Shown here: piece after piece, positions 1,818 to 19,683 of the stretch | Numbering within the stretch: position 1 is the first letter of the stretch | Layout: every line of letters starts with the position of its first letter | IMG/VR virus record: IMGVR_UViG_2718218136_000003 | Length of the DNA stretch: 35,535 nucleotides | Reading direction: 5' to 3' (one strand) | Source of the DNA: a virus | Taxonomy: Duplodnaviria > Heunggongvirae > Uroviricota > Caudoviricetes | The notes under the pieces: model-generated | What the model was told of the DNA's origin: nothing | Seen by the model: the letters and a program-made list of their open reading frames with translations, nothing else | Database searches by the model: none | Translations under genes and position numbers: made by a program

Positions 1818-1896
1818 TAGGGTGTCACCAGTAGGGGCTTTCAACGGTACAATGCGGGTTTGAGCGGCATAAATTACCACTGAAAGCCCTTAAACG

Positions 1897-2910
1897 TTAC
1901 TCTACTGTGGACACTGTGTGGACACTCTCGGCTTCAGTACCACCTCTTAGCGGATTAAGAGAAATGGCGTCCTGAAGGTACTCTGGCGCAAAATGAGCGT
2001 AAACCATAGTTTGCTCAATCCGCGTGTGACCTAGTATCCGTTGTAGCGTGATAATACTTCCTCCATTAATCATGAAATGAGTGGCAAAGCTGTGCCTTAG
2101 TGCATGTGTGGCTTGCCCCGTTGGCAAATCCGGTTTTATTGCTTTCATTGTTCGTCTGAAGCGAGGGTAATCAGCATCAGGGAATAAAAAACCTCGTTTG
2201 TTATCCGCGATCATTTTGGCAACAGCCTCTGAGATCGGGACGGTGCGTGGTTTGTTTGTTTTCGTTTTAACAAACGTGACGCGGTTATGGATGATATTTT
2301 CTGCTTTCAAACGAGCTGCTTCTCCCCAACGTGCTCCTGTACTCAGGCAAAGAATCGCAATCTTTTTATTGTCGCCGTCAAGTGCTGCAAGCAGTAAGGC
2401 AATTTCTTCCTGTGTGAGATAGCCTGTTTCTGGTTTTTCCTCCTTAAGCCTCTTTGTCCCTCTGATAGGGTGCTCACCAAAGAATAACTCCGCTTCAATC
2501 AGGGCTGTAAACATGCCGCTAATACATGTTAAATCACGATTGATACTCGAAGGTTTAATACCCTGACTTCTTCGGGTGGCGCAGTACTGGCTGATAAGGG
2601 ATTTCGTGATTTGAAATGCGCATGGGTCATTCGTTATTTTTGTGAAGATTTCAATTTTTCCAAGATTAGATTTCCCATGCTCTTCGTGTTTACCCTTTAA
2701 ATCCCACCAGATCTGTGTCAGTTCCGACAGACGTCGTTTGTCTGTTGGTTTTGATAGCCATTCTTTATTGTGGTGGTTGTACAACGTGTATTTTTCGAAA
2801 GCGACAGCTTCGCTTTTCTTATCAAACTTCCTACGGATGCGTTTTCCGTTACGTCCAGTAGGGCGGATGTCCACTTCATATCGACCATCATCGAGTTTTT
2901 TGATTGCCAT
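1897..2910 (-). CDS. int: P2-type tyrosine integrase, 337 aa
   Basis: Translation has the tyrosine recombinase C-terminal catalytic region (…ATHALRHSFATHFMINGGSIITLQRILGHTRIEQTMVYAHF…); same length as P2 Int; located next to attL and downstream of the C repressor on the same strand. Confidence 0.92.
   Translation of the reverse strand: MAIKKLDDGRYEVDIRPTGRNGKRIRRKFDKKSEAVAFEKYTLYNHHNKEWLSKPTDKRRLSELTQIWWDLKGKHEEHGKSNLGKIEIFTKITNDPCAFQITKSLISQYCATRRSQGIKPSSINRDLTCISGMFTALIEAELFFGEHPIRGTKRLKEEKPETGYLTQEEIALLLAALDGDNKKIAILCLSTGARWGEAARLKAENIIHNRVTFVKTKTNKPRTVPISEAVAKMIADNKRGFLFPDADYPRFRRTMKAIKPDLPTGQATHALRHSFATHFMINGGSIITLQRILGHTRIEQTMVYAHFAPEYLQDAISLNPLRGGTEAESVHTVSTVE
1906..1925. promoter_or_regulatory. 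Two direct TGTGGACAC repeats spaced 11 bp apart in the int-proximal (P') arm; candidate Int arm-type binding sites
   Basis: Direct repeat at 1906-1914 and 1917-1925, overlapping the 3' end of int; related copies TGTGGTCA / TGTGGACG with the same 11-bp spacing occur in the ogr-proximal arm at 33944-33962. Confidence 0.5.
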
Positions 2911-3025
2911 CAGAAAACCCTCCGAGTGGTACTTTTTTTTGCTACTACTAATCGCTTTTTTCGTGGTGGCTGAAATTTAGCCACCAATAGTAGGCACTTG
3001 TGATGAATATATTCACGATAAATTG

Positions 3026-3325
3026 TTAACCAGTCTTTTGACCGGAGTGGGGCGACGTTGTTTCGTTTTGCCCAAAGTGTGCGAGAGCGGGCGCAATTTG
3101 CCCGGCTTCTGGAGCTACCTGATCAGTCATGAACCACAAAGTATATTTAGTAAATCTGGGATGTTGTAAGACCTTCATTATGGCTTCAACTCCAGCGTTT
3201 TTTGACCGGCTCTCATAGCTCGAAAGTGAGCTGTAGGCTACACCAGTTAATTCACTGAATTCTTTACGGTTTAACCTTTCAGATTCACGGATTAGCTTCA
3301 ACTTCTCCGAAACGTCTATTGACAT
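3026..3325 (-). CDS. C: Immunity repressor C (P2-type), 99 aa
   Basis: ORF 3026-3397 trimmed to ATG at 3323-3325; C-terminal half (…FTKYTLWFMTDQVAPEAGQIAPALAHFGQNETTSPHSGQKTG) matches my recollection of P2 C; divergent from cox. Confidence 0.85.
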   Translation of the reverse strand: MSIDVSEKLKLIRESERLNRKEFSELTGVAYSSLSSYESRSKNAGVEAIMKVLQHPRFTKYTLWFMTDQVAPEAGQIAPALAHFGQNETTSPHSGQKTG

Positions 3326-3446: not shown

Positions 3447-3722
3447 ATGAATAGACAGCTTGTAAGCGTGACTGATGCCGTGCCTTATCAGGAGTTTGCA
3501 AAACTCATTGGTAAAACTCCAAGAGCTGTAAGGGGCATGATTGAGAAAGGGAAATTACCAGTTATTGAGATTACTGACCCTCAGTCAGTATCGGGGCGTG
3601 CTGGTGAATATTGGGTATACCTTCCGGCATGGAATAACGGACTAAAACTGGCTTATGAAAGCCGTCCTAAAGAGATTCGTGACGGCTGGTTGATGTGGTT
3701 AGGTCTCGGTGAACCACGTTAA
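3447..3722 (+). CDS. cox: Cox (excisionase / Pc repressor, P2-type), 91 aa
   Basis: 91-aa ORF divergent from C, same length and position as P2 Cox. Confidence 0.85.
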   Translation: MNRQLVSVTDAVPYQEFAKLIGKTPRAVRGMIEKGKLPVIEITDPQSVSGRAGEYWVYLPAWNNGLKLAYESRPKEIRDGWLMWLGLGEPR

Positions 3723-3732
3723 GGAGAACCGT

Positions 3733-3903
3733 ATGAATGAGCCTCGTTGTATTGCTCAGTTATTGCGTAACGAAAGCCCCAGGGCGATTGACTTCACCAT
3801 CACCCACGGGAAGGGACGCAAGGGAATCATTATCCGCACCAAAAAACAGAGTCCGTTAAAGAAGGCTCTGACCTTTCTGAAAAGCCGGAGGGGCTGGAAA
3901 TGA
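3733..3903 (+). CDS. Small early protein (P2 orf78 position), 56 aa
   Basis: ORF trimmed to ATG at 3733 with AAGGAG Shine-Dalgarno 6 nt upstream; overlaps the start of B (ATGA). Confidence 0.5.
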   Translation: MNEPRCIAQLLRNESPRAIDFTITHGKGRKGIIIRTKKQSPLKKALTFLKSRRGWK

Positions 3904-4400
3904 CAGTGATGACGCTCAATCTCGTTGAAAAACAGCCAGCAACTATGCGCCGGATAATTGGTAAGCATCTTGCCGTTCCTCGCTGGCAGGAGACATGTGA
4001 TTATTATAATCAGATGATGGAGCGCGAACGGCTAACAGTTTGCTTTCATGCGCAGTTAAAACAACGTCACGCAACGATGCGTTTTGAAGAAATGAACGAC
4101 GTCGAACGTGAACGGCTGGTTTGTGCAATTGATGAATTGCGTGGGGCATTCTCAAAACGCCGTCAGGTCGGTGCAAGTGAGTATGCATATATTAGCTTTT
4201 TAACTGTCAGTCAGCGCCGCACTTTATTTATGCACGCACGACTGACAGAAAAAGAATTTAACCAGCCATACTGGCGAATTAATGAAGAATCATGTTACTG
4301 GCGTGAAGCTTTATTCCGTGCATTACGTGAATTATTCAGTCTGTTTGAGTATGCACCGACAATTCTGACATCGGTAAAACCAGAGCAATATCTGCATTAA
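3900..4400 (+). CDS. B: Replication protein B (helicase loader), 166 aa
   Basis: 166-aa ORF, same size and position as P2 B in the early operon. Confidence 0.85.
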   Translation: MTVMTLNLVEKQPATMRRIIGKHLAVPRWQETCDYYNQMMERERLTVCFHAQLKQRHATMRFEEMNDVERERLVCAIDELRGAFSKRRQVGASEYAYISFLTVSQRRTLFMHARLTEKEFNQPYWRINEESCYWREALFRALRELFSLFEYAPTILTSVKPEQYLH

Positions 4401-4463
4401 GTAATTAACCAGAGTTTTTAACGCACTTAATTGTGCGGGGCTTCTTTTTGCCTGGAGAAAGTC

Positions 4464-4688
4464 ATGCATACAGTTTCTGAAAATCAGTGCGGTAAATACG
4501 CATTACTGCTGCAACAGGCCAGAACCGAAGCACAGGCCGACGCAGCGACGCGCTTTTCTTCTCATCTTGACGCCATGATTCGCCATATCACAAAGGCGGA
4601 GTTATCCCGCGTGGAGATAGTCGAGCTGCTCAGTCAGGAGTCGGAAAAATTTCACAATATCGGATTGTCTCGCGGGGAGGTGCTTTGA
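4464..4688 (+). CDS. Early protein (P2 orf80 position), 74 aa
   Basis: ORF 4431-4688 trimmed to ATG at 4464 preceded by GGAGAAAG; stop overlaps the next gene. Confidence 0.6.
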
Positions 4689-4990
4689 TGTCCTGTTCTC
4701 ATTCAGTTGTATTACTGAACAATGCCTTAAAAATCGCCGTTATGAAAAATGGCGATTTGTCTCTTATTCAACTTGGTCTTGATAAAGAAAAACGCGAAAT
4801 AACTGAATCTGTTATCGCGATTTATCAGAACGAATTAAACCTCCTGTCTGATGTGGTCAATTTACTTGTTAAACGCGCTGTATTTCATAAGCAAATCTCC
4901 TCCGTGGATGAACTGACGAAATTAACGACAGAAATCGCCAGCTATTGCGCTGATGAATTTAAGAAGCTGAACGACAAAAGGAGCTGGTAA
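4688..4990 (+). CDS. Early protein (P2 orf81 position), 100 aa
   Basis: ATG at 4688 overlapping the upstream TGA; translationally coupled early-operon ORF. Confidence 0.6.
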   Translation: MSCSHSVVLLNNALKIAVMKNGDLSLIQLGLDKEKREITESVIAIYQNELNLLSDVVNLLVKRAVFHKQISSVDELTKLTTEIASYCADEFKKLNDKRSW

Positions 4991-5214
4991 TGCCGGACAA
5001 CGTGGATTTTATTCAGGAACAGCAGGCTGAATTACTGGAGCGCCAGATTAACGCGGCAAGGGTAAAACATTGCGGTGCTTCTGCGCTGGTTTGTGAAGAG
5101 TGTGACGTGCCAATATCTGCTGCCCGTCGTGCGGCTTATCCGTCAGCCACGCGTTGTGTTTCCTGTCAGTCAGTCTTTGAAGCAAAAAACAAACATTACC
5201 GGAGAATGGCATGA
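4990..5214 (+). CDS. DksA/TraR-type C4 zinc-finger protein (P2 orf82 position), 74 aa
   Basis: Translation contains CGASALVCEECDVPI…CVSC, four Cys in a CxxC-N17-CxxC arrangement typical of TraR/DksA zinc fingers. Confidence 0.7.
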   Translation: MPDNVDFIQEQQAELLERQINAARVKHCGASALVCEECDVPISAARRAAYPSATRCVSCQSVFEAKNKHYRRMA

Positions 5215-5486
5215 GCATTCGTATAGAAATTGGCGAACGTTATGTCGTTACCAGTGACAGCTTTCAGTTTATTCTCCATGAGAAAAAGAGAGCGGAAAGC
5301 GGTAAAAACGCCGGTCAGGAGTGGCTGGCGGTGGTTGGTTATTACCCGAAATTAAGCCAGCTCGTTTCCGGCCTGATGCATCACGATATTCTGACCGGAA
5401 GCGCAAAGTCTTTTGCTGATTTAAACGCGCAGGTTGAGCAACTCAGCAAGCGTTGTTCAGAGGCTTTTGGCTCATATGGCCATTAA
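5211..5486 (+). CDS. Early protein (P2 orf83 position), 91 aa
   Basis: 91-aa ORF; its stop overlaps the start of A. Confidence 0.6.
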   Translation: MSIRIEIGERYVVTSDSFQFILHEKKRAESGKNAGQEWLAVVGYYPKLSQLVSGLMHHDILTGSAKSFADLNAQVEQLSKRCSEAFGSYGH

Positions 5487-7761
5487 AGCCTCCGGGCGTT
5501 TTGTCCCTCCGTCAGCATTTGCTGCAGGCACCGGTAAGACGTTTACCGGTGCTTATGCATGGAGCGCGCCACGCGAGGCTGTCGGGCGCGAAAGACCCCT
5601 TACACGTGACGAGATGCGTCAGGTGCAAGGTGTTTTATCCACGATTAACCGCCTGCCTTACTTTTTGCGTTCGCTGTTTACTTCACGCTATGACTACATC
5701 CGGCGCAATAAAAGCCCGGTGCACGGGTTTTATTTCCTCACATCCACTTTTCAGCGCCGTTTATGGCCGCGCATTGAGCGTGTGAATCAGCGCCATGAAA
5801 TGAACACCGACGCGTCGTTACTGTTTCTGGCAGAGCGTGACCACTATGCGCGCCTGCCGGGAATGAATGACAAGGAGCTGAAAAAGTTTGCTGCCCGTAT
5901 CTCATCGCAGCTTTTCATGATGTATGAGGAACTCAGCGATGCCTGGGTGGATGCGCATGGCGAAAAAGAATCGCTGTTTACGGATGAGGCGCAGGCTCAC
6001 CTCTATGGTCATGTTGCTGGCGCTGCACGTGCTTTCAATATATCCCCTCTCTACTGGAAAAAATACCGTAAAGGGCAGATGACCACGAGGCAGGCATATT
6101 CTGCCATTGCCCGTCTGTTTAACGATGAGTGGTGGACTCATCAGCTTAAAGGCCAGCGTATGCGCTGGCATGAGGCGTTACTGATTGCTGTCGGGGAGGT
6201 CAATAAAGACCGTTCTCCTTATGCCAGTAAACATGCCATTCGTGATGTGCGTGCACGCCGCCAGGCAAATCTGGAATTTCTTAAATCGTGTGATCTCGAA
6301 AACAGGGAAACCGGCGAGCGCATCGACCTTATCAGTAAGGTGATGGGCAGTATTTCTAATCCTGAAATTCGCCGGATGGAGCTGATGAACACCATTGCCG
6401 GTATTGAGCGTTACGCCGCAGCAGAGGGTGATGTGGGGATGTTTATCACGCTGACCGCGCCGTCAAAGTATCACCCGACACGTCAGGTCAGAAAAGGCGA
6501 AAGTAAAACCGTCCAGCTAAATCACGGCTGGAACGATGAGGCATTTAATCCAAAGGATGCGCAGCGTTATCTCTGCCGTATCTGGAGCCTGATGCGCACG
6601 GCATTCAAGGATAATGATTTACAGGTCTACGGTTTGCGTGTCGTCGAGCCACACCACGACGGAACGCCGCACTGGCATATGATGCTTTTTTGTAATCCGC
6701 GCCAGCGTAACCAGATTATCGAAATCATGCGTCGCTATGCGCTCAAAGAGGATGGCGACGAAAGAGGAGCCGCGCGAAACCGTTTTCAGGCAAAACACCT
6801 TAATCGGGGCGGTGCTGCGGGGTATATCGCGAAATACATCTCAAAAAACATCGACGGCTATGCACTGGATGGTCAGCTCGATAACGATACCGGCAGACCT
6901 CTGAAAGATACTGCCGCGGCTGTTACTGCATGGGCGTCAACGTGGCGCATCCCGCAATTTAAAACGGTTGGTCTGCCGACAATGGGGGCTTACCGTGAAC
7001 TACGCAAATTGCCGCGCGGTGTCAGCATTGCTGATGAGTTTGACGAGCGCGTCGAGGCTGCACGCGCCGCCGCAGACAGTGGTGATTTTGCGTTGTATAT
7101 CAGCGCGCAGGGTGGGGCAAATGTCCCGCGCGATTGTCAGACTGTCAGGGTCGCCCGTAGCCCGTCGGATGACGTTAACGAGTACGAGGAAGAGGTCGAG
7201 AGAGTGGTCGGCATTTACGCGCCGCATCTCGGCGCGCGTCATATTCATATCACCAGAACGACGGACTGGCGCATTGTGCCGAAAGCTCCGGTCGTTGAGC
7301 CTTTGACTTTAAAAAGCGGCATCGCCGCGCCTCGGAGTCCTGTCAATAACTGTGGAAAGCTCACCGGTGGTGATACTTCGTTACCGGCTCCCACACCTTC
7401 TGAGCACGCCGCAGCAGTGCTAAATCTGGTTGATGACGGTGTTATCGAATGGAATGACCCGGAGGTTGTGAGGACGCTCAGGGGTGCATTAAAACACGGC
7501 CTGAAAACACCAAATCGTCAGCAAAGAAACGGAAGCCCGTTAAAACCACATGAAATAACACCGTCGGCCAGACTGACCCGGTCGGAACGATTGCAAATTA
7601 CCCGTATCCGCGTTGACCTCGCTCAGAACGGTATCAGGCCGCAACGATGGGAGCTTGAGGCGCTGGCGCGTGGCGCGACAGTAAATTATGACGGGAAAAA
7701 ATTCACGTATCCGGTCGCTGATGAGTGGTCGGGATTCTCAACAGTAATGGAGTGGACATGA
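5476..7761 (+). CDS. A: Replication initiation protein A (rolling-circle nicking protein), 761 aa
   Basis: ORF 5434-7761 trimmed to ATG at 5476, giving 761 aa as in P2 A; contains the HUH-type motif region (…PHHDGTPHWHMMLF…) and the YxxK-like region (AGYIAKYISK). Confidence 0.9.
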   Translation: MAIKASGRFVPPSAFAAGTGKTFTGAYAWSAPREAVGRERPLTRDEMRQVQGVLSTINRLPYFLRSLFTSRYDYIRRNKSPVHGFYFLTSTFQRRLWPRIERVNQRHEMNTDASLLFLAERDHYARLPGMNDKELKKFAARISSQLFMMYEELSDAWVDAHGEKESLFTDEAQAHLYGHVAGAARAFNISPLYWKKYRKGQMTTRQAYSAIARLFNDEWWTHQLKGQRMRWHEALLIAVGEVNKDRSPYASKHAIRDVRARRQANLEFLKSCDLENRETGERIDLISKVMGSISNPEIRRMELMNTIAGIERYAAAEGDVGMFITLTAPSKYHPTRQVRKGESKTVQLNHGWNDEAFNPKDAQRYLCRIWSLMRTAFKDNDLQVYGLRVVEPHHDGTPHWHMMLFCNPRQRNQIIEIMRRYALKEDGDERGAARNRFQAKHLNRGGAAGYIAKYISKNIDGYALDGQLDNDTGRPLKDTAAAVTAWASTWRIPQFKTVGLPTMGAYRELRKLPRGVSIADEFDERVEAARAAADSGDFALYISAQGGANVPRDCQTVRVARSPSDDVNEYEEEVERVVGIYAPHLGARHIHITRTTDWRIVPKAPVVEPLTLKSGIAAPRSPVNNCGKLTGGDTSLPAPTPSEHAAAVLNLVDDGVIEWNDPEVVRTLRGALKHGLKTPNRQQRNGSPLKPHEITPSARLTRSERLQITRIRVDLAQNGIRPQRWELEALARGATVNYDGKKFTYPVADEWSGFSTVMEWT

Positions 7762-8213
7762 TGGCAAAAATTCACGAGGTAAAGCTGCACGCAAAATATT
7801 TCGACCTTGTGCTGGAAGGAAAGAAACGCGCAGAGTTTCGGAAAAATGACCGTAATTATGAGCGCGGGGACACGTTGATTTTGCATGAATGGGGGCAGGG
7901 TGTGTATACGGGGCGAAAGGTTGAAGCCCGGATAACAGATGTTACTGACCTGTCAGACTGGCTGGAAGATTATGTCTTGCTAAGTATTGAGCTGCTTAAT
8001 ACAGGCGCATATGAGATTGTGAACTGGAAAGAACTTAGTGAGCGTGGTCTGTTATTCAGAATTAATCATGAAATTATGCATAAGCTCGGCCTTGCTGTTA
8101 TGTATGAACCAGAGACGGGAATGTCTGGCGGGGCAATGGTTGCCACGGATGGAGCATGGAACTATTCAGATGAACAGATGGAGCGTGCACAGCAAAACGG
8201 GTGGCTTGGATAA
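7758..8213 (+). CDS. ASCH/PUA-like (DUF3850-type) protein (P2 orf91 position), about 151 aa
   Basis: ATG at 7758 overlapping the A stop; N-terminal region (KIHEVKLHAKYFDLVLEGKKRAEFRKNDRNYERGDTLILHEW) resembles ASCH-domain proteins as I recall them. Confidence 0.65.
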   Translation: MMAKIHEVKLHAKYFDLVLEGKKRAEFRKNDRNYERGDTLILHEWGQGVYTGRKVEARITDVTDLSDWLEDYVLLSIELLNTGAYEIVNWKELSERGLLFRINHEIMHKLGLAVMYEPETGMSGGAMVATDGAWNYSDEQMERAQQNGWLG

Positions 8214-8419
8214 TGCACAGAATACCAGGCGAGATACCGCACCATAAAACTAAAAATATCAAGCTGATGGCTATTGTTCAGCGTTTACAGCGGATTATGG
8301 TCAACGAAAATCTGACGCCCGATGAGCTAGTCGGGTGTGCCGAAATAGTCCGGGATAATTACGGGCGGTTTAACTATATCGGTCAGTCCAGAGTTGCGCC
8401 ACCACCACGCAGACGATAG
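8213..8419 (+). CDS. Hypothetical small protein, 68 aa, translationally coupled to orf91 (TAATG overlap)
   Basis: ORF 8201-8419 trimmed to ATG at 8213; no recognisable domain; may be an ORF-finder artefact. Confidence 0.35.
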   Translation: MHRIPGEIPHHKTKNIKLMAIVQRLQRIMVNENLTPDELVGCAEIVRDNYGRFNYIGQSRVAPPPRRR

Positions 8420-8421
8420 AT

Positions 8422-8464
8422 AACGCCGCCAGTCGTGAAACTTGTTTTCAGGGCTGGCGGCGTT
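8422..8464 (+). other. Perfect 11-bp inverted repeat (AACGCCGCCAG / CTGGCGGCGTT) with 21-nt loop directly after the 8419 stop; candidate RNA stem-loop or terminator without U-tract
   Basis: Inverted repeat read from sequence. Confidence 0.4.
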
Positions 8465-8490
8465 GAACAACGAGTGAAGCGAGGCGTTAG
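8431..8490 (+). repeat. Copy A of a ~60-bp imperfect direct repeat (about 75% identical to copy B) upstream of cargo gene 1
   Basis: Manual alignment to 9401-9460 gives 45 of 60 matching positions, with long conserved blocks (TGAAACTTG, TGGCGG, GTTGA, GTTAG). Confidence 0.6.
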
Positions 8491-8648
8491 TTGACATTCA
8501 TATTTTTACTGCGTTGGTGCTGTTTTTTGACGGTTGAAAGGAGTTATCTCGGAGAGCTAAAGCTAACAACTTACAAATATTCAAAAGTAAGCTTCCTGTT
8601 GCTAACATAAGGTCGATTTTTTATGTGGATGATGCAAAAAGGATAGCT

Positions 8649-9380
8649 ATGGATACTATAATCGCTTTTCTATCACTCGCTTTTTTTGTTGCTTTTTTCA
8701 TCGGGTTAATCAAGCCATCACTGGTGCGAATGCCAAGCCGCAAACGTGCAAGTGCGGTTTATCTCGGAGGAGGTTTTGTATTGAGCATAATTGGTTCAAT
8801 ACTCTATCCAACAGAAAAAAGCCAGCCAGTTGCTAAAACTGAAACATCAACCGTTGTAGAACACCAAGTCCAAAAAACATTCGAATATGGTGAAAAAACA
8901 CTCAAGGAATATCGGAGCGAGCCAAAGAAAACTCGACACGATATTGTGAATAGTTACATTGACTTTAAGAAAGTTCCAGTCACCGCATCAGATGCATTTT
9001 ATGCCTGCATGAGTGAGTATACATTTACCAAAGATGATGAGTTGAAACTCGGTGATGTTCTTGGGTGGTGCTTTAATGATTATGAAAATGACCCGAGTTC
9101 ACTAAATAATAAAATCAATCTTGATACATTTCAGAGTAATTTTAGTGGTTGGGATGGTTCTTATCGTCCATTGGAAAAACTAATTAAAGATAATATGAAC
9201 GATGATTCATCTTATAAACATGTATCAACGGTATATCATTTAGTTTTGAATAAAGACCCGCACGCCATTGTGAAAACGACGTTTCGCGGCACTAATGCTT
9301 ATGGTGGCATGGTCAAACAGACTGTAGCAGCGCGAGTTGACGTGCGAACGGGTGAGATCGATTCAATACTCGACAATTAA
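8649..9380 (+). CDS. Uncharacterised membrane-anchored protein, 243 aa: two predicted N-terminal TM helices plus ~170-aa soluble domain; cargo in the tin/old slot
   Basis: ORF 8625-9380 trimmed to ATG at 8649 with AAGGA Shine-Dalgarno 6 nt upstream; hydrophobic stretches IIAFLSLAFFVAFFIGLI and AVYLGGGFVLSIIGSILY; AT-rich codon usage unlike the phage backbone. Confidence 0.6.
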   Translation: MDTIIAFLSLAFFVAFFIGLIKPSLVRMPSRKRASAVYLGGGFVLSIIGSILYPTEKSQPVAKTETSTVVEHQVQKTFEYGEKTLKEYRSEPKKTRHDIVNSYIDFKKVPVTASDAFYACMSEYTFTKDDELKLGDVLGWCFNDYENDPSSLNNKINLDTFQSNFSGWDGSYRPLEKLIKDNMNDDSSYKHVSTVYHLVLNKDPHAIVKTTFRGTNAYGGMVKQTVAARVDVRTGEIDSILDN

Positions 9381-9400
9381 ATAATATAGTGACAGCTCCG

Positions 9401-9460
9401 TCAGTGATGAAACTTGCTTTTAGTCTTGGCGGGGTTGAGCAATGAGTCTTGCAAGGTGTT
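9401..9460 (+). repeat. Copy B of the ~60-bp imperfect direct repeat, running into the ribosome-binding site and start codon of cargo gene 2
   Basis: Manual alignment to 8431-8490; copy B ends GTTAGC immediately before ATG 9464. Confidence 0.6.
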
Positions 9461-9463
9461 AGC

Positions 9464-10120
9464 ATGCGTAGAATGGAAGCTGCTTGGACGTGGGGTATTC
9501 ATATGAATTTAAAAATTTTCGGCATAATTGTCCTTTCTGCTTTGATGTTCGTTTTAGGTTTTTTTCTCGGTGGTTTTAATTGGGAATGGGCTGATAAGAA
9601 TTATGCAGGTGAGGTGGCGTTGTGGAGTATGTTAGGAGGGTGGTTATCCGCAATTGCAACTCTGTTTGCCGTGTTGGTTTCATTATATATGGCGTATCAA
9701 GCTACTCAGAATGAGATTGAAAAAATCAGGGTTACTCATGGAGTAAGTATGAGTGTCACTCATGACAATGAGTTAAGTTGTAATCTCATTATTCAGAACT
9801 TGAGAAATATGAAAGTGAATATTACTGGTGTTTTTTTGTCTCTAGGTAAATCATCAGGTAAGTACTCTTTGGATAAAGTAATTGACAATCGTAATATAAC
9901 GCTTTCATATAAAGGTGAAACAGAAAAGGTACAATTTGTAATCCATTCTGGGTATATTTGGTGGTCAATGTATAAATTATTCGATATGGATAAGAACATA
10001 GGTTTTGAAAAGGGTAAGATCTTGATAACAACCAACCTCAATACATATGAATTTGATTTGCCAAAAGAATATTTAAGAGCTTTTGAGAAAGCTTATTCGG
10101 AGTATCAGACAAAAAAATAA
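9464..10120 (+). CDS. Uncharacterised membrane-anchored protein, 218 aa: two predicted N-terminal TM helices plus ~150-aa soluble domain; cargo in the tin/old slot
   Basis: ORF 9449-10120 trimmed to ATG at 9464 with AAGGTG 5 nt upstream; hydrophobic stretches IFGIIVLSALMFVLGFFLGGF and WSMLGGWLSAIATLFAVLVSLYMAY; AT-rich. Confidence 0.6.
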   Translation: MRRMEAAWTWGIHMNLKIFGIIVLSALMFVLGFFLGGFNWEWADKNYAGEVALWSMLGGWLSAIATLFAVLVSLYMAYQATQNEIEKIRVTHGVSMSVTHDNELSCNLIIQNLRNMKVNITGVFLSLGKSSGKYSLDKVIDNRNITLSYKGETEKVQFVIHSGYIWWSMYKLFDMDKNIGFEKGKILITTNLNTYEFDLPKEYLRAFEKAYSEYQTKK

Positions 10121-10249
10121 TGAGCTGCATGCAAAAGGTGCATGTTTTTGCATGTGCTAAGTTCACTGGTTTTGTGTATATCGCTTCAGATCTAGCGTGG
10201 TTCCGGGGAGGGCATGCAACTGCATTAAAACCGCTCCATGAAGCGGGCG

Positions 10250-10268
10250 GGCGAGGCGGGGAAAGCAC
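10250..10268. other. cos site: 19-nt cohesive-end sequence GGCGAGGCGGGGAAAGCAC
   Basis: Exact string found about 170 bp beyond the Q stop codon, at the position of cos in P2; matches the P2 cohesive-end sequence as I recall it. Confidence 0.7.
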
Positions 10269-10437
10269 TGCGCGCTGGCGGTGGTGCTGATTTTATTTTT
10301 TCAGCGTCTGAGCGCGTCGTGATGGCGTTTAGATTGTTCGCCGGGGCGTTGGTGTGTCTGCGGGATGTTTTGTACGGTGGTGAGCGTGTGAGGGCGTGAT
10401 GACAGGGTGTAAAAAAGCCGCCCGCAGGCGGCGATGT

Positions 10438-11472
10438 TCAGCCGTTGTCAGTGTCCAGTGAGTAGTTTTTAAAGCGGATGACCTCCTGACCGAGCCAGCC
10501 GTTTATCTCGCGGATCCTGTCCTGTAACGGGATAAGCTCATTGCGGACAAAGACCTTTGCCACTTTCTCAATATCACCCAGCGACCCGACGTTCTCCGGC
10601 TTGCCGCCCATCAACTGAAAGGGGATGCGGTGCGCGTCCAGCAGGTCAGCGGCGCTGGCTTTTTTGATATTAAAAAAATCGTCCTTCGTCGCCACTTCAC
10701 TGAGGGGGATAATTTTAATGCCGTCGGCTTTCCCCTGCGGGGCATAGAGAAACAGATTTTTAAAGTTATTGCGGCCTTTCGACTTAACCATGTTTTCGCG
10801 AAGCATTTCGATATCGTTGCGATCCTGCACGGCATCGGTGACGTACATGATGTATCCGGCATGTGCGCCGTTTTCGTAATACTTGCGGCGGAACAGCGTG
10901 GCCGACTCATTCAGCCAGGCAGAGTTAAGGGCGCTGAGATATTCCGGCAGGCCGTACAGCTCCTGATTAATATCGGGCTCCAGCAGGTGAAACACGGAGC
11001 CGGGCGCGAAGGCTGTCGGCTCGTTGAAGGACGGCACCCACCAGTAAACATCCTCTTCCACGCCACGACGGGTATATTTTGCCGGTGAGGTTTCCAGTCT
11101 GATGACCTTACCGGTGGTGCTGTAGCGCTTTTCCAGAAACGCATTACCGAACACCAGAAAATCCAGCACAAAGCGGCTGAAATCCTGCTGGGAAAGCCAC
11201 GGGTGCGGGATAAACGTTGAAGCCAGAATATTACGTTTGACGTAAATCGGTGAGCTGTGATGCACGGCAGCACGCAGACTTTTTGCCAGACCGGTAAAGC
11301 TGACCGGCGGCTCATACCATCTGCCGTTACTGATGCATTCGACGTAATCCAGAATGTCACGGCGGTCGAGTACCGGCACCGGCTCGCCAAAGGTGAATGC
11401 CTCCATTTTCGGGGCGATGGCGGTCATGGTTTTTGCCGCAGGTTGCGGTGTTTTCCCTTTTTTCTTGCTCAT
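10438..11472 (-). CDS. Q: Portal protein Q, 344 aa
   Basis: 344-aa ORF on the minus strand in the P2 Q position, same length as P2 Q. Confidence 0.9.
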   Translation of the reverse strand: MSKKKGKTPQPAAKTMTAIAPKMEAFTFGEPVPVLDRRDILDYVECISNGRWYEPPVSFTGLAKSLRAAVHHSSPIYVKRNILASTFIPHPWLSQQDFSRFVLDFLVFGNAFLEKRYSTTGKVIRLETSPAKYTRRGVEEDVYWWVPSFNEPTAFAPGSVFHLLEPDINQELYGLPEYLSALNSAWLNESATLFRRKYYENGAHAGYIMYVTDAVQDRNDIEMLRENMVKSKGRNNFKNLFLYAPQGKADGIKIIPLSEVATKDDFFNIKKASAADLLDAHRIPFQLMGGKPENVGSLGDIEKVAKVFVRNELIPLQDRIREINGWLGQEVIRFKNYSLDTDNG

Positions 11473-13244
11473 CAGTAAAACTCCAGAATGGTGGATGTCA
11501 GCGGGGTGCTGATACCGGCGGTGAGTGGCTCATTTAACAGAGCGTGCATGGTCGCCCAGGCGAGGTCGGCGTGGCTGGCTTCCTCGCTGCGGCTGGCCTC
11601 ATAGGTGGCGCTGCGTCCGCTGCTGGTCATGGTCTTGCGGATAGCCATAAACGAGCTGGTGATGTCGGTGGCGCTGACGTCATATTCCAGACAGCCTCGG
11701 CGGATAACGTCTTTTGCCTTGAGCACCATTGAGGTTTTCATTTCCGGCGTGTAGCGGATATCGCGCGCGGCGGGATAGAACGAGCGCACGAGCTGGAACA
11801 CGCCGACACCGAGGCCGGTGGCATCAATCCCGATGTATTCAACGTTATATTTTTCGGTGAGTTTGCGGATGGATTCCGCCTGGGTGGCAAAGTCCATGCC
11901 TTTCCACTGGTGACGCTCAAGTATTCTGAATTTGCCACCGGCCACCACCGGCGGTGCCAGCACCACGCATCCGGCGCTGTCGCCACGGTGTGACGGGTCG
12001 TAACCAATCCAGACCGGGCGGGAGCCGAACGGATTGGCGGCAAAGGGTGCATAGTCTTCCCATTCTTCCAGCGTGTCGACCATGCAGCGTTGCAGCTCCT
12101 CGAACGGGAACACCGATGCCTTGTCGTCAACAAATTCACACATGAACAGGTTTTTAAAATCGTCGGCGCTGTTTTCGCGTTTGAGCTGCTCAATGTCGAA
12201 CAGCGTGCAGCCGCCTTTCAGGGCGTCCTCAATGGTGACAATCTGCCGCCACTGGCCGTCCGCACAGAGAAGCCCACCGGCAAGGGCGTTATGACTGACG
12301 TCGATTTCCACGCGTTCGGCGGCGCTGGCGCGTCCCCGGTTGAACAGTTCACCCGACCAGAACGGGTAGGCGTCGTGCGCCAGCGTGGACGGGGTGGAGA
12401 AATAGGTCGAGCGCAGGTGACTCTGTGAGGCCATACCTGATGCCACCTTACGCAGTACCTGAAAATTCGGGATCCAGAAAATCTCGTCGACGTACAGGTC
12501 GCCGTTATGGCTCTGCGCGGTGTTGGAGTTGGTGCCGAGAAAAATCAGTTTTGCGCCGTTATTGCCCAGGACAATCGGGTCACCGGTCAGGTCAACGTCA
12601 ACCAGACGGGCAAAGGCGATGATGTATTCGCGGAACACATACGCCTGCGTTTTACTGGCCGACAGAAAAATCTGGTTATGACCGGTTTTCAGGGCGCGCA
12701 GCAGCGCCTCGCGGGAAAAATAAAACGTCGCGCCAATCTGACGGGATTTCAGGATATCGCGGATGCGGTGCTCAAGCCCGGCGCGATACCAGTGCAACTG
12801 ATAGTCGAAAGACTGCTCAAAGAAAATCTGCTCCAGCTTTTCGATGGCTTCGTCGCTGAAAAAATTCTTTTTCGGTTTGCGCCGCCCGCCTTTGTTGCGG
12901 TTAGCGACGTTCGGATTAAGGTCTGCCTCGTTGCCGGTCTGACTGTAACGGTTTACCCGTGCCAGTCGTTCAATCTGGCGTCCGAGCAGGTCAATTTCCT
13001 TGAAGTCACCGCCGGTTTTCTGCGGTTTGATGATGAGCTGGGTCAGCCGCGCTTCCAGACTCATTTCGACACGGCTGATGGGAGCAACGCTGTCCCAGCC
13101 GTCGCGCTGTTTCCAGCTCTGCACCGTCGGGCGTTTCATCTGCAACATGGCGGCAATCTGCGGCACGGAAAACCCCTGCCAGTACAGCAGCGCCGCCTGA
13201 CGACGCGGGTCGTGTAAAAGAGTGGTGTCTGTGGTGATGGTCAT
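11472..13244 (-). CDS. P: Terminase large subunit (ATPase) P, 590 aa
   Basis: ORF 11472-13274 trimmed to the second Met (MTITTDTTLL), giving the P2 P length; upstream of Q on the same strand. Confidence 0.88.
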   Translation of the reverse strand: MTITTDTTLLHDPRRQAALLYWQGFSVPQIAAMLQMKRPTVQSWKQRDGWDSVAPISRVEMSLEARLTQLIIKPQKTGGDFKEIDLLGRQIERLARVNRYSQTGNEADLNPNVANRNKGGRRKPKKNFFSDEAIEKLEQIFFEQSFDYQLHWYRAGLEHRIRDILKSRQIGATFYFSREALLRALKTGHNQIFLSASKTQAYVFREYIIAFARLVDVDLTGDPIVLGNNGAKLIFLGTNSNTAQSHNGDLYVDEIFWIPNFQVLRKVASGMASQSHLRSTYFSTPSTLAHDAYPFWSGELFNRGRASAAERVEIDVSHNALAGGLLCADGQWRQIVTIEDALKGGCTLFDIEQLKRENSADDFKNLFMCEFVDDKASVFPFEELQRCMVDTLEEWEDYAPFAANPFGSRPVWIGYDPSHRGDSAGCVVLAPPVVAGGKFRILERHQWKGMDFATQAESIRKLTEKYNVEYIGIDATGLGVGVFQLVRSFYPAARDIRYTPEMKTSMVLKAKDVIRRGCLEYDVSATDITSSFMAIRKTMTSSGRSATYEASRSEEASHADLAWATMHALLNEPLTAGISTPLTSTILEFY

Positions 13245-13417
13245 GAATACCTCGCCGTGATGAATACACGGCAAGGCTACTGAGTCGCGCCCCGCGATTC
13301 GCTAAGGTGCTGTTGTGCCAGTGATAAGCCATCCGGGACTGATGGCGGAGGATGCGCATCGTCGGGAAACTGATGCCGACATGTGACTCCTCTAATCACT
13401 ATTCAGGACTCCTGACA
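13245..13417. promoter_or_regulatory. Divergent late promoter region between P and O; contains TGTTGTGCCAGTGATAAGCCA (13311-13331), candidate Ogr-dependent upstream element
   Basis: Intergenic region between divergent late operons; TGTTGT motif also found upstream of V and FI. Confidence 0.45.
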
Positions 13418-14272
13418 ATGGCAAAAAAAGTCTCAAAATTCTTTCGTATCGGCGTTGAGGGTGACACCTGTGACGGGCGTGTCATCAGTGCGCAGGATAT
13501 TCAGGAAATGGCCGAAACCTTTGACCCGCGAGTCTATGGTTGCCGCATTAACCTGGAACATCTGCGCGGCATCCTGCCTGACGGTATTTTTAAGCGTTAT
13601 GGCGATGTGGTCGAACTGAAGGCCGAAAAGATTGACGATGATTCGGCGCTGAAAGGCAAATGGGCGCTGTTTGCGAAAATCACCCCGACCGATGACCTTA
13701 TCGCGATGAACAAGGCCGCGCAGAAGGTCTACACCTCAATGGAAATTCAGCCGAACTTTGCCAACACCGGCAAATGTTATCTGGTGGGGCTGGCCGTCAC
13801 CGATGACCCGGCAAGCCTCGGCACGGAATACCTGGAATTCTGCCGCACGGCAAAACACAACCCCCTGAACCGCTTCAAATTAAGCCCTGAAAACCTGATT
13901 TCAGTAGCAACGCCCGTTGAGCTGGAATTTGAAGACCTGCCAGAAACCGTGTTCACCGCCCTGACCGAAAAGGTGAAATCCATTTTTGGCCGCAAACAGG
14001 CCAGCGATGACGCCCGTCTGAATGACGTGCATGAAGCGGTGACCGCTGTTGCTGAACATGTGCAGGAAAAACTGAGCGCCACTGAGCAGCGCCTCGCTGA
14101 GATGGAAACTGCCTTTTCCGCTCTTAAGCAGGAGGTGACTGACAGGGCGGATGAAACCAGCCAGGCATTCACCCGCCTGAAAAACAGTCTCGACCACACC
14201 GAAAGTCTGACCCAGCAGCGCCGCAGCAAGGCCACCGGTGGTGGCGGTGATGCCCTGCTGACGAACTGCTGA
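13418..14272 (+). CDS. O: Capsid scaffolding protein O, 284 aa
   Basis: ORF 13352-14272 trimmed to ATG at 13418 (MAKKVSKFF…), giving the P2 O length; first gene of the rightward late operon. Confidence 0.88.
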   Translation: MAKKVSKFFRIGVEGDTCDGRVISAQDIQEMAETFDPRVYGCRINLEHLRGILPDGIFKRYGDVVELKAEKIDDDSALKGKWALFAKITPTDDLIAMNKAAQKVYTSMEIQPNFANTGKCYLVGLAVTDDPASLGTEYLEFCRTAKHNPLNRFKLSPENLISVATPVELEFEDLPETVFTALTEKVKSIFGRKQASDDARLNDVHEAVTAVAEHVQEKLSATEQRLAEMETAFSALKQEVTDRADETSQAFTRLKNSLDHTESLTQQRRSKATGGGGDALLTNC

Positions 14273-14330
14273 CCGGCGTCAGTCAGTCCGGGAAAACCTT
14301 CACGATTAACCCTTAATTTCAGGAAAAACT

Positions 14331-15404
14331 ATGCGCCAGGAAACCCGCTTTAAATTTAATGCCTACCTGTCCCGTGTTGCCGAACTGAACGGCATCGACG
14401 CCGGTGATGTGTCGAAAAAATTCACCGTTGAACCGTCGGTCACCCAGACCCTGATGAACACCATGCAGGAGTCCTCTGACTTTCTGACCCGCATCAACAT
14501 TGTGCCGGTCAGCGAAATGAAAGGGGAAAAAATTGGCATCGGTGTCACCGGCTCCATTGCCAGCACCACCGACACCGCCGGTGGCACCGAGCGTCAGCCG
14601 AAGGACTTCTCGAAGCTGGCGTCCAACAAGTACGAATGCGACCAGATTAACTTCGATTTTTATATCCGCTACAAAACGCTTGACCTGTGGGCGCGTTATC
14701 AGGATTTCCAGCTCCGTGTCCGTAACGCCATTATCAAACGCCAGTCCCTTGATTTCATCATGGCCGGTTTTAACGGCGTGAAGCGTGCCGAAACCTCTGA
14801 CCGCAGCAGCAATCCGATGCTGCAGGATGTGGCGGTCGGCTGGCTGCAGAAATACCGCAATGAAGCCCCGGCGCGCGTGATGAGTAAGGTCACTGACGAG
14901 GAAGGCCGCACCACCTCTGAGGTTATCCGCGTGGGTAAGGGCGGTGATTATGTCAGCCTTGATGCACTGGTGATGGATGCGACCAACAACCTGATTGAGC
15001 CGTGGTATCAGGAAGACCCCGACCTTGTGGTGATTGTGGGGCGTCAGTTACTGGCGGACAAGTATTTCCCCATCGTTAACAAGGAGCAGGACAACAGCGA
15101 AATGCTGGCCGCTGACGTCATCATCAGCCAGAAACGCATCGGTAACCTGCCGGCGGTACGCGTCCCGTACTTCCCGGCGGATGCGATGCTCATCACGAAG
15201 CTGGAAAACCTGTCCATCTACTACATGGATGACAGCCATCGCCGCGTGATTGTGGAAAACCCGAAACTCGACCGCGTGGAGAACTACGAGTCAATGAACA
15301 TTGATTACGTGGTGGAAGACTACGCCGCCGGTTGTCTGGTGGAAAAAATTAAGGTCGGTGATTTCTCCACACCGGCTAAAGCGACCGCAGAGCCGGGAGC
15401 GTAA
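14331..15404 (+). CDS. N: Major capsid protein N, 357 aa
   Basis: 357-aa ORF, same length and position as P2 N. Confidence 0.9.
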   Translation: MRQETRFKFNAYLSRVAELNGIDAGDVSKKFTVEPSVTQTLMNTMQESSDFLTRINIVPVSEMKGEKIGIGVTGSIASTTDTAGGTERQPKDFSKLASNKYECDQINFDFYIRYKTLDLWARYQDFQLRVRNAIIKRQSLDFIMAGFNGVKRAETSDRSSNPMLQDVAVGWLQKYRNEAPARVMSKVTDEEGRTTSEVIRVGKGGDYVSLDALVMDATNNLIEPWYQEDPDLVVIVGRQLLADKYFPIVNKEQDNSEMLAADVIISQKRIGNLPAVRVPYFPADAMLITKLENLSIYYMDDSHRRVIVENPKLDRVENYESMNIDYVVEDYAAGCLVEKIKVGDFSTPAKATAEPGA

Positions 15405-15407
15405 CCG

Positions 15408-16145
15408 ATGACGAGTCCCGCACAGCGCCACATGATGCGGGTCTCGGCAGCGATAACCGCGCAGCGGGAAGCCGCCCCGCTGCGACATGCAACTGTCTAT
15501 GAGCAGATGCTGGTTAAGCTCGCCGCAGACCAGCGCACACTGAAAGCGATTTATTCAAAAGAGCTGAAGGCCGCAAAAAAACGCGAACTGCTGCCGTTCT
15601 GGTTGCCGTGGGTGAACGGCGTGCTGGAGCAGGGCAAAGGCGCACAGGATGACATTCTGATGACAGTCATGCTGTGGCGTCTGGATACCGGCGATATTGC
15701 CGGTGCGCTGGAGATTGCCCGTTATGCCCTGAAGTACGGTCTGACCATGCCGGGTAAACACCGCCGCACCCCGCCGTACATGTTCACCGAGGAGGTGGCG
15801 CTCGCGGCCATGCGTGCTCACGCTGCCGGTGAGTCTGTGGATACCCGCCTGCTGACGGAGACCCTTGAACTGACCGCCACGGCTGATATGCCTGATGAAG
15901 TGCGCGCAAAGCTGCACAAAATCACAGGTCTGTTTCTGCGTGATGGTGGTGATGCCGCCGGTGCGCTGGCTCACCTGCAACGTGCGACACAGCTCGACTG
16001 TCAGGCAGGTGTCAAAAAAGAGATTGAACGACTGGAGCGGGAGCTGAAACCGGAGCCGCAGCCCAAAGCGGCCACCCGTACCCCGCGTAAGACCCGGAGC
16101 GTGACACCGGCAAAACGTGGACGCCCGAAAAAGAAAGCCAGTTAA
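15408..16145 (+). CDS. M: Terminase small subunit / endonuclease M, 245 aa
   Basis: ORF following N; size close to P2 M; basic Lys/Arg-rich C-terminus. Confidence 0.85.
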   Translation: MTSPAQRHMMRVSAAITAQREAAPLRHATVYEQMLVKLAADQRTLKAIYSKELKAAKKRELLPFWLPWVNGVLEQGKGAQDDILMTVMLWRLDTGDIAGALEIARYALKYGLTMPGKHRRTPPYMFTEEVALAAMRAHAAGESVDTRLLTETLELTATADMPDEVRAKLHKITGLFLRDGGDAAGALAHLQRATQLDCQAGVKKEIERLERELKPEPQPKAATRTPRKTRSVTPAKRGRPKKKAS

Positions 16146-16244
16146 CAACCGAATGCGCCCCGCGCCAGGGCGGCACGCCGGTCAGTGAGGGTGAATCACC
16201 TGACGCTGCACCGGCGTCCACCGCCCGACTTTTCAGAGGTAGTC

Positions 16245-16754
16245 ATGATGACGCTGATTATTCCGCGAAAGGAGGCTCCCGTGTCCGGTGAGGGTACGGT
16301 GGTCATCCCGCAACCGGCAGGCGACGAGCCGGTGATTAAAAACACGTTCTTTTTTCCCGATATCGACCCGAAGCGCGTCCGGGAACGTATGCGCCTTGAG
16401 CAGACCGTCGCCCCCGCCCGTCTGCGTGAGGCCATCAAGTCAGGCATGGCGGAGACGAATGCGGAGCTGTACGAGTACCGCGAACAGAAAATTGCCGCCG
16501 GTTTTACGCGTCTGGCGGACGTTCCGGCGGACGACATCGACGGTGAAAGCATCAAAGTTTTTTACTACGAGCGCGCCGTGTGTGCGATGGCGACCGCGTC
16601 GCTTTATGAGCGTTATCGCGGCGTGGATGCCAGTGCGAAAGGCGACAAGAAGGCTGACAGCATTGACAGCACCATTGATGAGCTGTGGCGGGATATGCGC
16701 TGGGCAGTGGCGCGAATCCAGGACAAGCCGCGCTGCATCGTGAGTCAAATCTGA
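16245..16754 (+). CDS. L: Head completion protein L, 169 aa
   Basis: ORF 16185-16754 trimmed to ATG at 16245 preceded by AGAGG; P2 L length. Confidence 0.85.
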   Translation: MMTLIIPRKEAPVSGEGTVVIPQPAGDEPVIKNTFFFPDIDPKRVRERMRLEQTVAPARLREAIKSGMAETNAELYEYREQKIAAGFTRLADVPADDIDGESIKVFYYERAVCAMATASLYERYRGVDASAKGDKKADSIDSTIDELWRDMRWAVARIQDKPRCIVSQI

Positions 16755-16957
16755 TGAAGACCTTTGCGCTACAGGGCGACACGCTCGACGCCATTTGTGT
16801 CCGGTATTACGGGCGCACTGAGGGCGTGGTCGAAGCCGTGCTCGCCGCAAATCCGGGACTGGCTGAACTGGGTGTGGTGCTGCCGCACGGCACCGCCGTC
16901 GAACTGCCCGACGTTCAGACCGCGCCCGTGGCTGAAACTGTCAATCTGTGGGAGTAA
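16754..16957 (+). CDS. X: Tail protein X (LysM-like), 67 aa
   Basis: ORF 16685-16957 trimmed to ATG at 16754 overlapping the L stop (ATGA); MKTFALQGDTLDAICVRYYG… as in P2 X. Confidence 0.85.
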   Translation: MKTFALQGDTLDAICVRYYGRTEGVVEAVLAANPGLAELGVVLPHGTAVELPDVQTAPVAETVNLWE

Positions 16958-16960
16958 CGC

Positions 16961-17242
16961 ATGACAGCAGAAGAAAAAAGCGTCCTGTCGCTTTTCATGA
17001 TTGGGGTGCTGATTGTTGTCGGCAAGGTGCTTGCCGGTGGTGAACCCATCACCCCGCGTCTGTTTATCGGGCGCATGTTGCTCGGTGGTTTTGTCTCGAT
17101 GGTTGCCGGTGTTGTTCTGGTGCAGTTTCCTGACCTGTCACTGCCTGCGGTGTGCGGCATTGGCTCCATGCTGGGTATCGCCGGTTATCAGGTGATTGAG
17201 ATTGCCATTCAGCGCCGCTTTAAGGGCAGGGGGAAACAGTAA
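16961..17242 (+). CDS. Y: Holin Y, 93 aa
   Basis: 93-aa ORF with hydrophobic helices, first gene of the lysis cassette, P2 Y length. Confidence 0.85.
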   Translation: MTAEEKSVLSLFMIGVLIVVGKVLAGGEPITPRLFIGRMLLGGFVSMVAGVVLVQFPDLSLPAVCGIGSMLGIAGYQVIEIAIQRRFKGRGKQ

Positions 17243-17739
17243 TGCCGGTAATTAACACGCATCAGAATATCGCCGCCTTTCTCGACATGCTGGCCGTGTC
17301 CGAAGGGACGGCAAATCATCCGCTGACGAAAAACCGGGGCTATGACGTGATAGTCACCGGACTGGACGGGAAGCCGGAAATCTTCACCGACTACAGCGAC
17401 CACCCGTTCGCGCATGGCCGACCGGCGAAGGTGTTTAACCGTCGCGGTGAAAAATCCACGGCCTCCGGTCGCTATCAGCAGCTTTACCTGTTCTGGCCGC
17501 ATTACCGCAAACAGCTTGCCCTGCCGGATTTCAGTCCGCTGTCACAGGACAGACTTGCCATTCAGTTGATCCGCGAACGCGGTGCACTGGATGACATCCG
17601 GGCGGGATGCATTGAGCGCGCCATTTCACGCTGTCGCAATATCTGGGCGTCCCTGCCGGGTGCCGGTTACGGTCAGCGTGAGCATTCACTGGAAAAACTG
17701 GTCACCGTCTGGCGTACCGCTGGCGGCGTACCGGCTTAA
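17242..17739 (+). CDS. K: Endolysin K, 165 aa
   Basis: 165-aa ORF after the holin, P2 K length. Confidence 0.85.
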   Translation: MPVINTHQNIAAFLDMLAVSEGTANHPLTKNRGYDVIVTGLDGKPEIFTDYSDHPFAHGRPAKVFNRRGEKSTASGRYQQLYLFWPHYRKQLALPDFSPLSQDRLAIQLIRERGALDDIRAGCIERAISRCRNIWASLPGAGYGQREHSLEKLVTVWRTAGGVPA

Positions 17740-17753
17740 ACGGAGTAAACACC

Positions 17754-18592: not shown

Positions 18593-18737
18593 CCCGGAGA
18601 CGAACGGCGATTTAAGTGCCGATATCCGGCAGCTTGAGAACGCGCTGGCACGTTGTGCCAGCCAGGTAAAAATGATTAAACACTGTCAGGACGAAAACGA
18701 TGCTCAAACCCGACAGCCTGCGCAGGGCGCTGACTGA
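18447..18737 (+). CDS. lysC: Spanin outer-membrane lipoprotein LysC (Rz1-like), 96 aa, starting inside lysB in the +1 frame
   Basis: ORF 18330-18737 trimmed to ATG at 18447; lipoprotein signal MKTKIFAAGTVLTCLMLCAGC; Pro-rich mature region; overlaps the 3' part of lysB and the start of R. Confidence 0.8.
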   Translation: MKTKIFAAGTVLTCLMLCAGCTSAPPAPTPVIVHNACPKVSLCPMPGSDPETNGDLSADIRQLENALARCASQVKMIKHCQDENDAQTRQPAQGAD

Positions 18738-19678: not shown

Positions 19679-19683
19679 GAGGT

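Follow-up and report, generated by a model that had tools for sequence, protein, structure and literature searches.

A predicted P2-type cos site adjoining hotspot cargo in an apparently intact Peduovirus prophage

The stretch of DNA analysed here (35,535 nt, hereafter the window) holds a prophage closely related to phage P2, bounded by a pair of 28-bp direct repeats that form the attL and attR cores (Table 1). Homology to P2 begins at 1790, which corresponds to P2 24355 in the attP core, and BLASTN against P2 yielded 95–98% identity over 1790–3155, 3469–7981, 10250–23704 and 27084–34029. The excised genome between the att cores is 32,212 bp, a packageable size, vs 33,593 bp for P2. Every essential P2 gene is present as a full-length open reading frame (ORF), including the tape measure gene T (815 aa), and besides the proteins listed in Table 1, Int (99.7%) and gpN (99.2%) closely match their P2 counterparts. 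The cognate terminase (gpP, gpM) and portal (gpQ) are encoded by the same element as the cos site described below. Beyond the gene for the large terminase subunit, the strand opposite to Q and P encodes the GPO scaffold and the P2-type major capsid protein. Rfam yielded a single match in the window, to the sRNA CyaR/RyeE (34006–34091, − strand, 100.7 bits). One end of this sRNA gene extends into the 28-bp att core at 34002–34029, which identifies cyaR as the integration locus of the prophage. The flanks consist of a YegS-type kinase gene (1–900, −) and a peptidase U32 gene (34174–35535, −).

Table 1. Features of the prophage and of the cos region in the window; negative and positive offsets are counted from the predicted top-strand nick.
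Feature	Position	Strand	Remarks
attL core	1790–1817	+	28 bp, TAAAAAATAAGCCCGTGTAAGGGAGATT; direct repeat with 34002–34029
gpA	5476–7761		replication gene, left of the hotspot; 97.6% identity to P2
Hotspot cargo	8213–10120	+	ORFs 8213–8419 (68 aa), 8649–9380 (243 aa) and 9464–10120 (218 aa; 223 aa as 9449–10120)
TGCA(T) repeat array	10126–10153	+	TGCATGCAaaaggTGCATgttttTGCAT; repeats at −124, −120, −111 and −101
Spacer of variable sequence and fixed length	10154–10213		between array and core; vestigial dyad AGATCT at 10188–10193
Near-perfect palindrome (candidate recognition element)	10214–10225		ATGCAAC TGCAT; dyad axis −30.5, inside the core
Conserved cos core (−35 to +26)	10215–10275	+	TGCAACTGCATTAAAACCGCTCCATGAAGCGGGCG, the 19-mer, TGCGCGC
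19-nt cohesive-end sequence (predicted)	10250–10268	+	GGCGAGGCGGGGAAAGCAC; unique exact match, equals P2 cosL/cosR
Non-coding spacer, cos to Q terminator	10276–10408		96–98% identity to P2-type phages; P2 annotates no gene here
tQ, intrinsic terminator of the P-Q operon	10409–10432	−	GCCGCC-TGCG-GGCGGC, then TTTTTT; from terminator scan
gpQ, portal protein	10438–11472	−	Pfam Phage_portal; 99.4% identity to P2 Q
gpP, terminase large (ATPase) subunit	11472–13244	−	590 aa; Terminase_6N, Terminase_6C, N-terminal HTH Terminase_5; 99.8% identity to P2 P
gpM, terminase small subunit	15408–16145	+	Pfam Phage_term_smal (PF05944); 98.0% identity to P2 M
attR core	34002–34029	+	28 bp; pairs with attL; P2 homology stops here

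Variable non-backbone genes occupy the interval between gpA/orf91 and cos, which places them in the well-known hotspot that P2-like phages have near cos. The cargo is low in GC (0.35–0.39; 0.40 for the whole segment 7982–10249 vs 0.516 for the prophage), and BLASTN detected no homology to P2 across 7982–10249. P2 homology ends at 7981. This position falls inside the orf91-like gene (7761–8213), which therefore contains the left breakpoint of the hotspot replacement; the product of the gene combines a DUF3850/ASCH domain with an extra C-terminal DUF7415. The segment resembles the P2 TO (tin-old) region in its location between gpA/orf91 and cos and in its low GC content, and it is replaced wholesale relative to P2: the cargo of the window has the orientation of gpA and no relationship to tin and old, whereas the latter are transcribed away from cos in P2. 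None of the cargo ORFs matched Pfam, PADLOC or NCBIfam families; their matches were to phrog_11386, phrog_3403 and phrog_16957, PHROG families without assigned function. Compared with the gpA–gpQ anti-phage hotspot, this cargo is free of recognised defence domains (PADLOC, Pfam). Because they are located in the cos-proximal P2 hotspot, these genes are reasonable candidates for anti-phage or lysogenic-conversion functions.

The orf91-like protein is identical to WP_042002657 at 144 of 150 residues, the 243-aa ORF product to WP_042002655 at all 243, the 218-aa product to WP_042002654 at 216 of 218 and the 68-aa product to WP_053272972 at all 68. Exactly these four accessions appear in the supplement of PMC9122126 as "DUF3850/ASCH + hypothetical + hypothetical + hypothetical". 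Moreover, Rousset et al. 2022 (PMC9122126) described that the gpA–gpQ hotspot of P2-like phages adjoins cos, and a 2026 NAR paper repeats this. The first-pass annotation had found cos at the expected position with hotspot cargo directly beside it; this holds, and the adjacency is a known property of the family (PMC9122126). With the arrangement already in that supplement and the hotspot-cos adjacency published, both parts of the finding, the P2-family cos site and the cargo adjoining it, are in the literature, and the site is an ordinary one. Among 5,426 complete E. coli genomes, 28 contain the cargo and cos arrangement and 2,160 the cos/Q portion. An earlier account of a hotspot beside cos, together with retrons in 186-like prophages, is said to have been given by Dodd and Egan in 1996.

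The 19-mer GGCGAGGCGGGGAAAGCAC lies in a gap of 317 bp between the stop codon of the 223-aa ORF at 9449–10120 (+) and that of Q (344-aa ORF, 10438–11472, −), i.e., between the second cargo gene and Q, just where the initial reading had put it. As is typical for the P2 family, it is located beyond the Q stop and the terminator of the P-Q operon, with gpA and the hotspot on the opposite side. The Q stop falls on virion coordinate 189 in the window, 187 in P2 and 189 in the phage fiAA91-ss, and a spacing of about 190 bp from cos to the Q stop also occurs in 73 of 91 P2-like loci from IMG/VR. The window thus shows the canonical cos-Q spacing. A minority of P2-like elements (L011, L013, L021, L032, L035, L037 and others; about 16 of the 91 IMG/VR loci) carry cos 0.45–3 kb from the Q stop, which indicates that DNA can also be inserted directly beyond +26, on the Q side.

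The non-coding spacer at 10276–10408 is conserved among P2-type phages of E. coli and missing from P4-like satellites, which diverge right after +26. The tQ hairpin (10417–10432, −; fold of −15.2 kcal/mol) with its T-run is the counterpart of the tQ annotated at 160–181 in P2. Three small ORFs in this region, at 10120–10290 (+), 10238–10399 (+) and 10038–10268 (−), were treated as spurious: they are unannotated in P2 and overlap conserved non-coding elements. Another hairpin, at 10231–10246 (−), looked like a terminator in the scan and was rejected, being situated inside the conserved core and folding no better than shuffled sequences (z = −0.97). Searches for structured RNA near cos gave no Rfam match at the gathering threshold.

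As an exact string, the 19-mer at 10250–10268 (+) occurs once in the window, and no other cos-like copy with up to three mismatches was found on either strand (0.01 expected by chance). All 19 positions agree with nt 1–19 ("cosL; left cohesive end") and nt 33575–33593 ("cosR") of the P2 record NC_001895. The first-pass annotation had taken the string for the cohesive end of P2, and the annotation of P2 bears this out. The same 19 nt are given as the 5′-protruding cohesive end of P2 and P2-related phages in PMC3931495, after Padmanabhan, Wu & Calendar 1974. The satellite P4 carries the P2 19-mer as well, whereas the annotated cos of phage 186, GGCGTGGCGGGGAAAGCAT, agrees at 17 of 19 positions; the window sequence fits the family pattern GGCG(A/T)GGCGGGGA(A/T)AGCA(C/T). 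A megablast search with 10000–10560 against 50,697 phage records matched 75 of them. At least 11 distinct genomes (14 listed rows, H27–H40) have their record start (position 1) or their last base exactly at window position 10250, among them fiAA91-ss, L-413C, S164, HQ103 and P24A7b. In fiAA91-ss, cosL is annotated at 1–19, and its record start equals window position 10250.

Following the geometry annotated for 186 ("top strand cut at 5′ end and bottom strand cut at 3′ end"), staggered nicks are predicted at 10249|10250 on the top and 10268|10269 on the bottom strand, which would leave 19-nt 5′ overhangs. The P2 terminase cuts cos on circular monomers and yields 19-nt 5′ cohesive ends (PMC2231350; P2 and 186 annotations). 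As both the terminase and the cos core of the window are essentially those of P2, cutting at the same two places is expected, by homology and from what is established for P2. The nick contexts, GCGGGC(G/A)^ and GCGCGCA^, are two-fold symmetric and each is about 90–100% conserved over the loci. In the window, the seven bases 5′ of the nicks are near-identical between the strands (GCGGGCG^ on top, 10243–10249; GCGCGCA^ on the bottom, 10269–10275).

Considering this evidence, 10250–10268 is very probably the cleavage site of the cos packaging signal in an apparently intact P2-type prophage (Peduovirus). Such a site sets the zero point and the orientation of the virion map for the annotation of the prophage. 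The first-pass annotation had proposed that the site fixes the linear genome ends and that the cargo module lies at the extreme right of the packaged DNA. Consistent with both, the predicted virion chromosome would run from 10250 through to 10249 and measure 32,212 bp, not counting the 19-nt overhangs. The segment 7982–10249 would take up the last ~7% of this map and the cargo (8213–10120) the last ~5%, with the 243- and 218-aa ORFs at 30,588–32,083 of 32,212 (95.0–99.6%). In P2, tin and old are found at the same position (30,684–33,380 of 33,593).

To delimit the packaging signal, we compared 76–77 loci anchored on the top-strand nick, which were taken from one-genome-per-species contigs of many enterobacterial species and located via the Q protein. 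A second set comprised 120 IMG/VR loci found by the core pattern, of which 91 adjoin a Q homologue and 17 a homologue of the P4 gene psu. Per-column conservation is 0.8–1.0 from −35 to +26 in 77/76 genome loci, and this core is also conserved in 83 P2-like and 17 P4-like IMG/VR loci, i.e., in about 200 loci overall. The window agrees with the consensus at the highly conserved columns (76–77 genome loci, 100 IMG/VR loci), and its cos module does not deviate from the consensus at any invariant position. The core contains the ~55-bp cos core that P2 and P4 are known to share (PMC2231350, PMC9594776, PMC5694545).

Within the core, TGCA repeats at −35 and −29 make up the palindrome ATGCAACTGCAT. 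Its axis at −30.5 is the strongest in a dyad scan from −140 to −10 over 76 loci (5.9 of 10 pairs vs a mean of 2.5, s.d. 0.6), and its five outer pairs are complementary in 76–99% of cases. We regard it as a candidate protein-recognition element. Relative to P2, the window has the identical 19-mer, the same right flank (TGCGCGCTG.CGGTGGTGCTGATT), a left flank (TGCATTAAAACCGC.CC.TGAAGCGGGCG) that agrees at all but two positions, a similar distance to the Q stop (189 vs 187), the tQ terminator and a near-identical terminase. However, left of −30 it is nearer to 186 and P4 (cATGCAACTGCATT) than to P2 (aaggTGCATT), and the spacer sequence differs from that of P2. With 186 and P4 it shares the distal TGCA array, the spacer, the ATGCAACTGCAT palindrome, the 19-nt stagger and the (T/C)GCGCGC motif. 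The two also differ from the window: 186 deviates at 2 of the 19 positions and has a clear palindrome, GCCAGagCTGGC, at −60, whereas P4 has its cargo on the +27 side of cos and psu on the repeat side.

Three other explanations of the site were weighed. The site could be a bona fide cos by descent in a prophage that is defective or non-inducible, hence a relic that is never cut. Many P2-like prophages are cryptic, and in the closest complete-genome relative (NZ_CP033884, locus L004, 41791 onward; 99.5% identity around cos) T is annotated as a pseudogene with an internal stop. In E. coli K-12, a P2-like element at this chromosomal location survives only as a remnant. In the window, in contrast, all essential P2 genes including T (815 aa) are full length, both att cores are intact, Int and the terminase subunits (98–99.8%) remain nearly those of P2 and the cos module matches the consensus at invariant positions, all of which makes a relic very improbable. 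Alternatively, the cos could belong not to the P2-like phage but to an inserted hitchhiker such as a P4-like satellite; P4-like satellites have the same 19-mer and core and likewise carry cargo beside cos (PMC9122126). However, no psu, sid, delta or alpha gene flanks the site. At P4-like loci, the end of psu is 167 bp to the left of the nick and divergence sets in right of +26, whereas here the DNA to the right of the site continues as P2 sequence (97%) through Q, P, O and N, with gpA to the left; a satellite origin is excluded. Equally excluded is a chance GC-rich match without packaging role, which has only the shortness of the string in its favour and is countered by the 0.01 matches expected even with ≤3 mismatches, by 42 further conserved flanking bases that match too and by the P2-like position relative to Q.

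Around this P2-type cos, conservation extends further on one side than on the other. Right of +26 it falls to background in P4-like satellites and in P2-like loci with insertions between cos and Q, whereas leftward it reaches background only past about −125. The only constraint on the sequence from −125 to −36 is a set of TGCA(T) repeats whose positions are fixed: in the 76 genome loci, TGCA starts at −124/−120, at −111 (51+9 loci) and at −101 (51+8 loci), and 90 P2-like and 17 P4-like IMG/VR loci show the repeats at these positions too. TGCAT is 23-fold enriched in −160 to −36 compared to the surroundings. P2 (repeats at −123/−111/−101), 186 and P4 each have a TGCA array, with differing sequence between the repeats. 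A distant BLASTN search with 10100–10249 against E. coli genomes found matches over at least 80% of the query length in 215 genomes. Of eight listed rows with such coverage, six start at window position 10126 (71–76% identity), which is independent evidence for a boundary there. Altogether, the array is found at −124 to −97 in P2, P4, 186 and about 190 related loci, well beyond the cited 55-bp core, which is said to be all of cos that P2 and P4 share (PMC9594776).

The array (10126–10153) also forms a hairpin, which a simple terminator scan picks out. Although this hairpin (10127–10145) was at first a candidate terminator of the second cargo gene, we now assign it to the conserved TGCA array, given that P2, P4 and 186 have the repeats at equal distance from the nick next to unrelated neighbours; it may serve both as array and as terminator. 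In the spacer between array and core, roughly one locus in two has a palindrome (consensus GCCAGnnCTGGC or a variant) centred at −59.5 (−66 to −53). At this axis at least four consecutive symmetric pairs occur in 49% of the 76 loci vs 0–11% at 18 control axes. In some cases the arms are 8–16 bp long and differ in sequence, and at some loci a T-run follows, as in a terminator facing cos. Of this dyad, only AGATCT is present in the window and nothing in P2; therefore, it is not essential for P2-type packaging.

Based on these comparisons, the functional signal probably spans about −125 to +26 (10125–10275) and would comprise the TGCA(T) array, the spacer of fixed length, the ATGCAACTGCAT palindrome and the nick region, with all additional recognition elements on the cargo side. 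If so, the stop codon of the cargo (10118–10120) would lie only 5 bp from the packaging signal and not 129 bp. The spacer between cargo and 19-mer would not be inert, since it contains conserved cos-associated repeats. A cosmid with longer cos flanks transduced at 0.035 vs 1.7e-5 for a shorter signal (PMC9594776), which means that the flanks matter; this fits a signal longer than 55 bp and does not map it. Against an extended module speaks that the repeats are short, AT/GC-balanced palindromic cores. The inference is weakened further in P4-like satellites, in which the entire left flank is next to psu and is conserved for that reason anyway. Moreover, the old-tin transcripts of P2 start at 33424/33426, so that the first P2 repeat may overlap the old promoter region and could have another role. 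The site itself is unsurprising, and a modest by-product of the analysis has been to define the cos module by comparison; the limits of −125 to +26 may aid efficient P2/P4 cosmid design and the automatic delimitation of hotspots.

For background, the cos of phage lambda consists of the nicking site cosN and of cosB with the terminase-binding repeats R1–R3 and an IHF site, and its stagger is 12 nt. The P2-type site resembles it by analogy only, in having a partly two-fold symmetric nick site and a one-sided array of short repeats at a fixed distance; there is no sequence relationship, and the stagger is 19 nt instead of 12. Ziermann and Calendar reportedly studied the cos of P2 in 1990. P2 was reported to prefer circular monomers (PMC2231350). 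In the proposed mechanism, the prophage would be excised at the att cores and replicated to circular monomers, on which the terminase (gpP and gpM) would recognise cos. Recognition may involve TGCA half-sites, in the distal array and the proximal palindrome on the cargo side, and these could be bound by the HTH-containing N terminus of gpP (Terminase_5/HTH_23), by gpM or by both. Cutting would then take place at the two near-symmetric nick contexts, top 10249|10250 and bottom 10268|10269, and the DNA would be threaded through the gpQ portal, giving a linear virion chromosome of 32.2 kb with 19-nt 5′ cohesive ends, Q at its left end and the gpA–gpQ hotspot cargo at its right end.

A bolder reading, which we offer tentatively and consider rather unlikely, would see a common asymmetric signal of ~150 bp in P2, P4 and 186, in which the array serves terminase recognition (cosB-like), a spacer of ~60 bp, constant in length and unconstrained in sequence, often carries a palindrome at −60, and the edges at −125 and +26 form hard boundaries for cargo exchange. 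The −125 edge would then bound the cargo in P2-like phages and the +26 edge that in P4-like satellites. Were this true and the array previously undescribed, it would explain the poor packaging of short cos cassettes, the one-sided cargo of P2 and the recombination breakpoints permitted in the hotspot.

Further observations concern other parts of the prophage. The second P2 hotspot, at the Z/fun position, is also replaced (25914–27083, GC 0.395) and contains an ORF of 251 aa (26033–26788, −) that matches phrog_36054 and has no Pfam match. The tail-fibre gene H (22979–25297) encodes 772 aa vs ~669 aa according to the P2 CDS coordinates; its C-terminal part diverges from P2, and at 23525–23980 a 132-bp (44-aa) unit is repeated in tandem, in 3.5 copies with 88% identity. 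Additionally, in many complete E. coli chromosomes the equivalent of window position 8400 is record position 2925, so that these records begin at the equivalent of 5476, the position aligned with residue 1 of P2 gpA. These assemblies were evidently rotated to the replication gene of the prophage, probably by a start-fixing tool that mistook gpA for a replication initiator.
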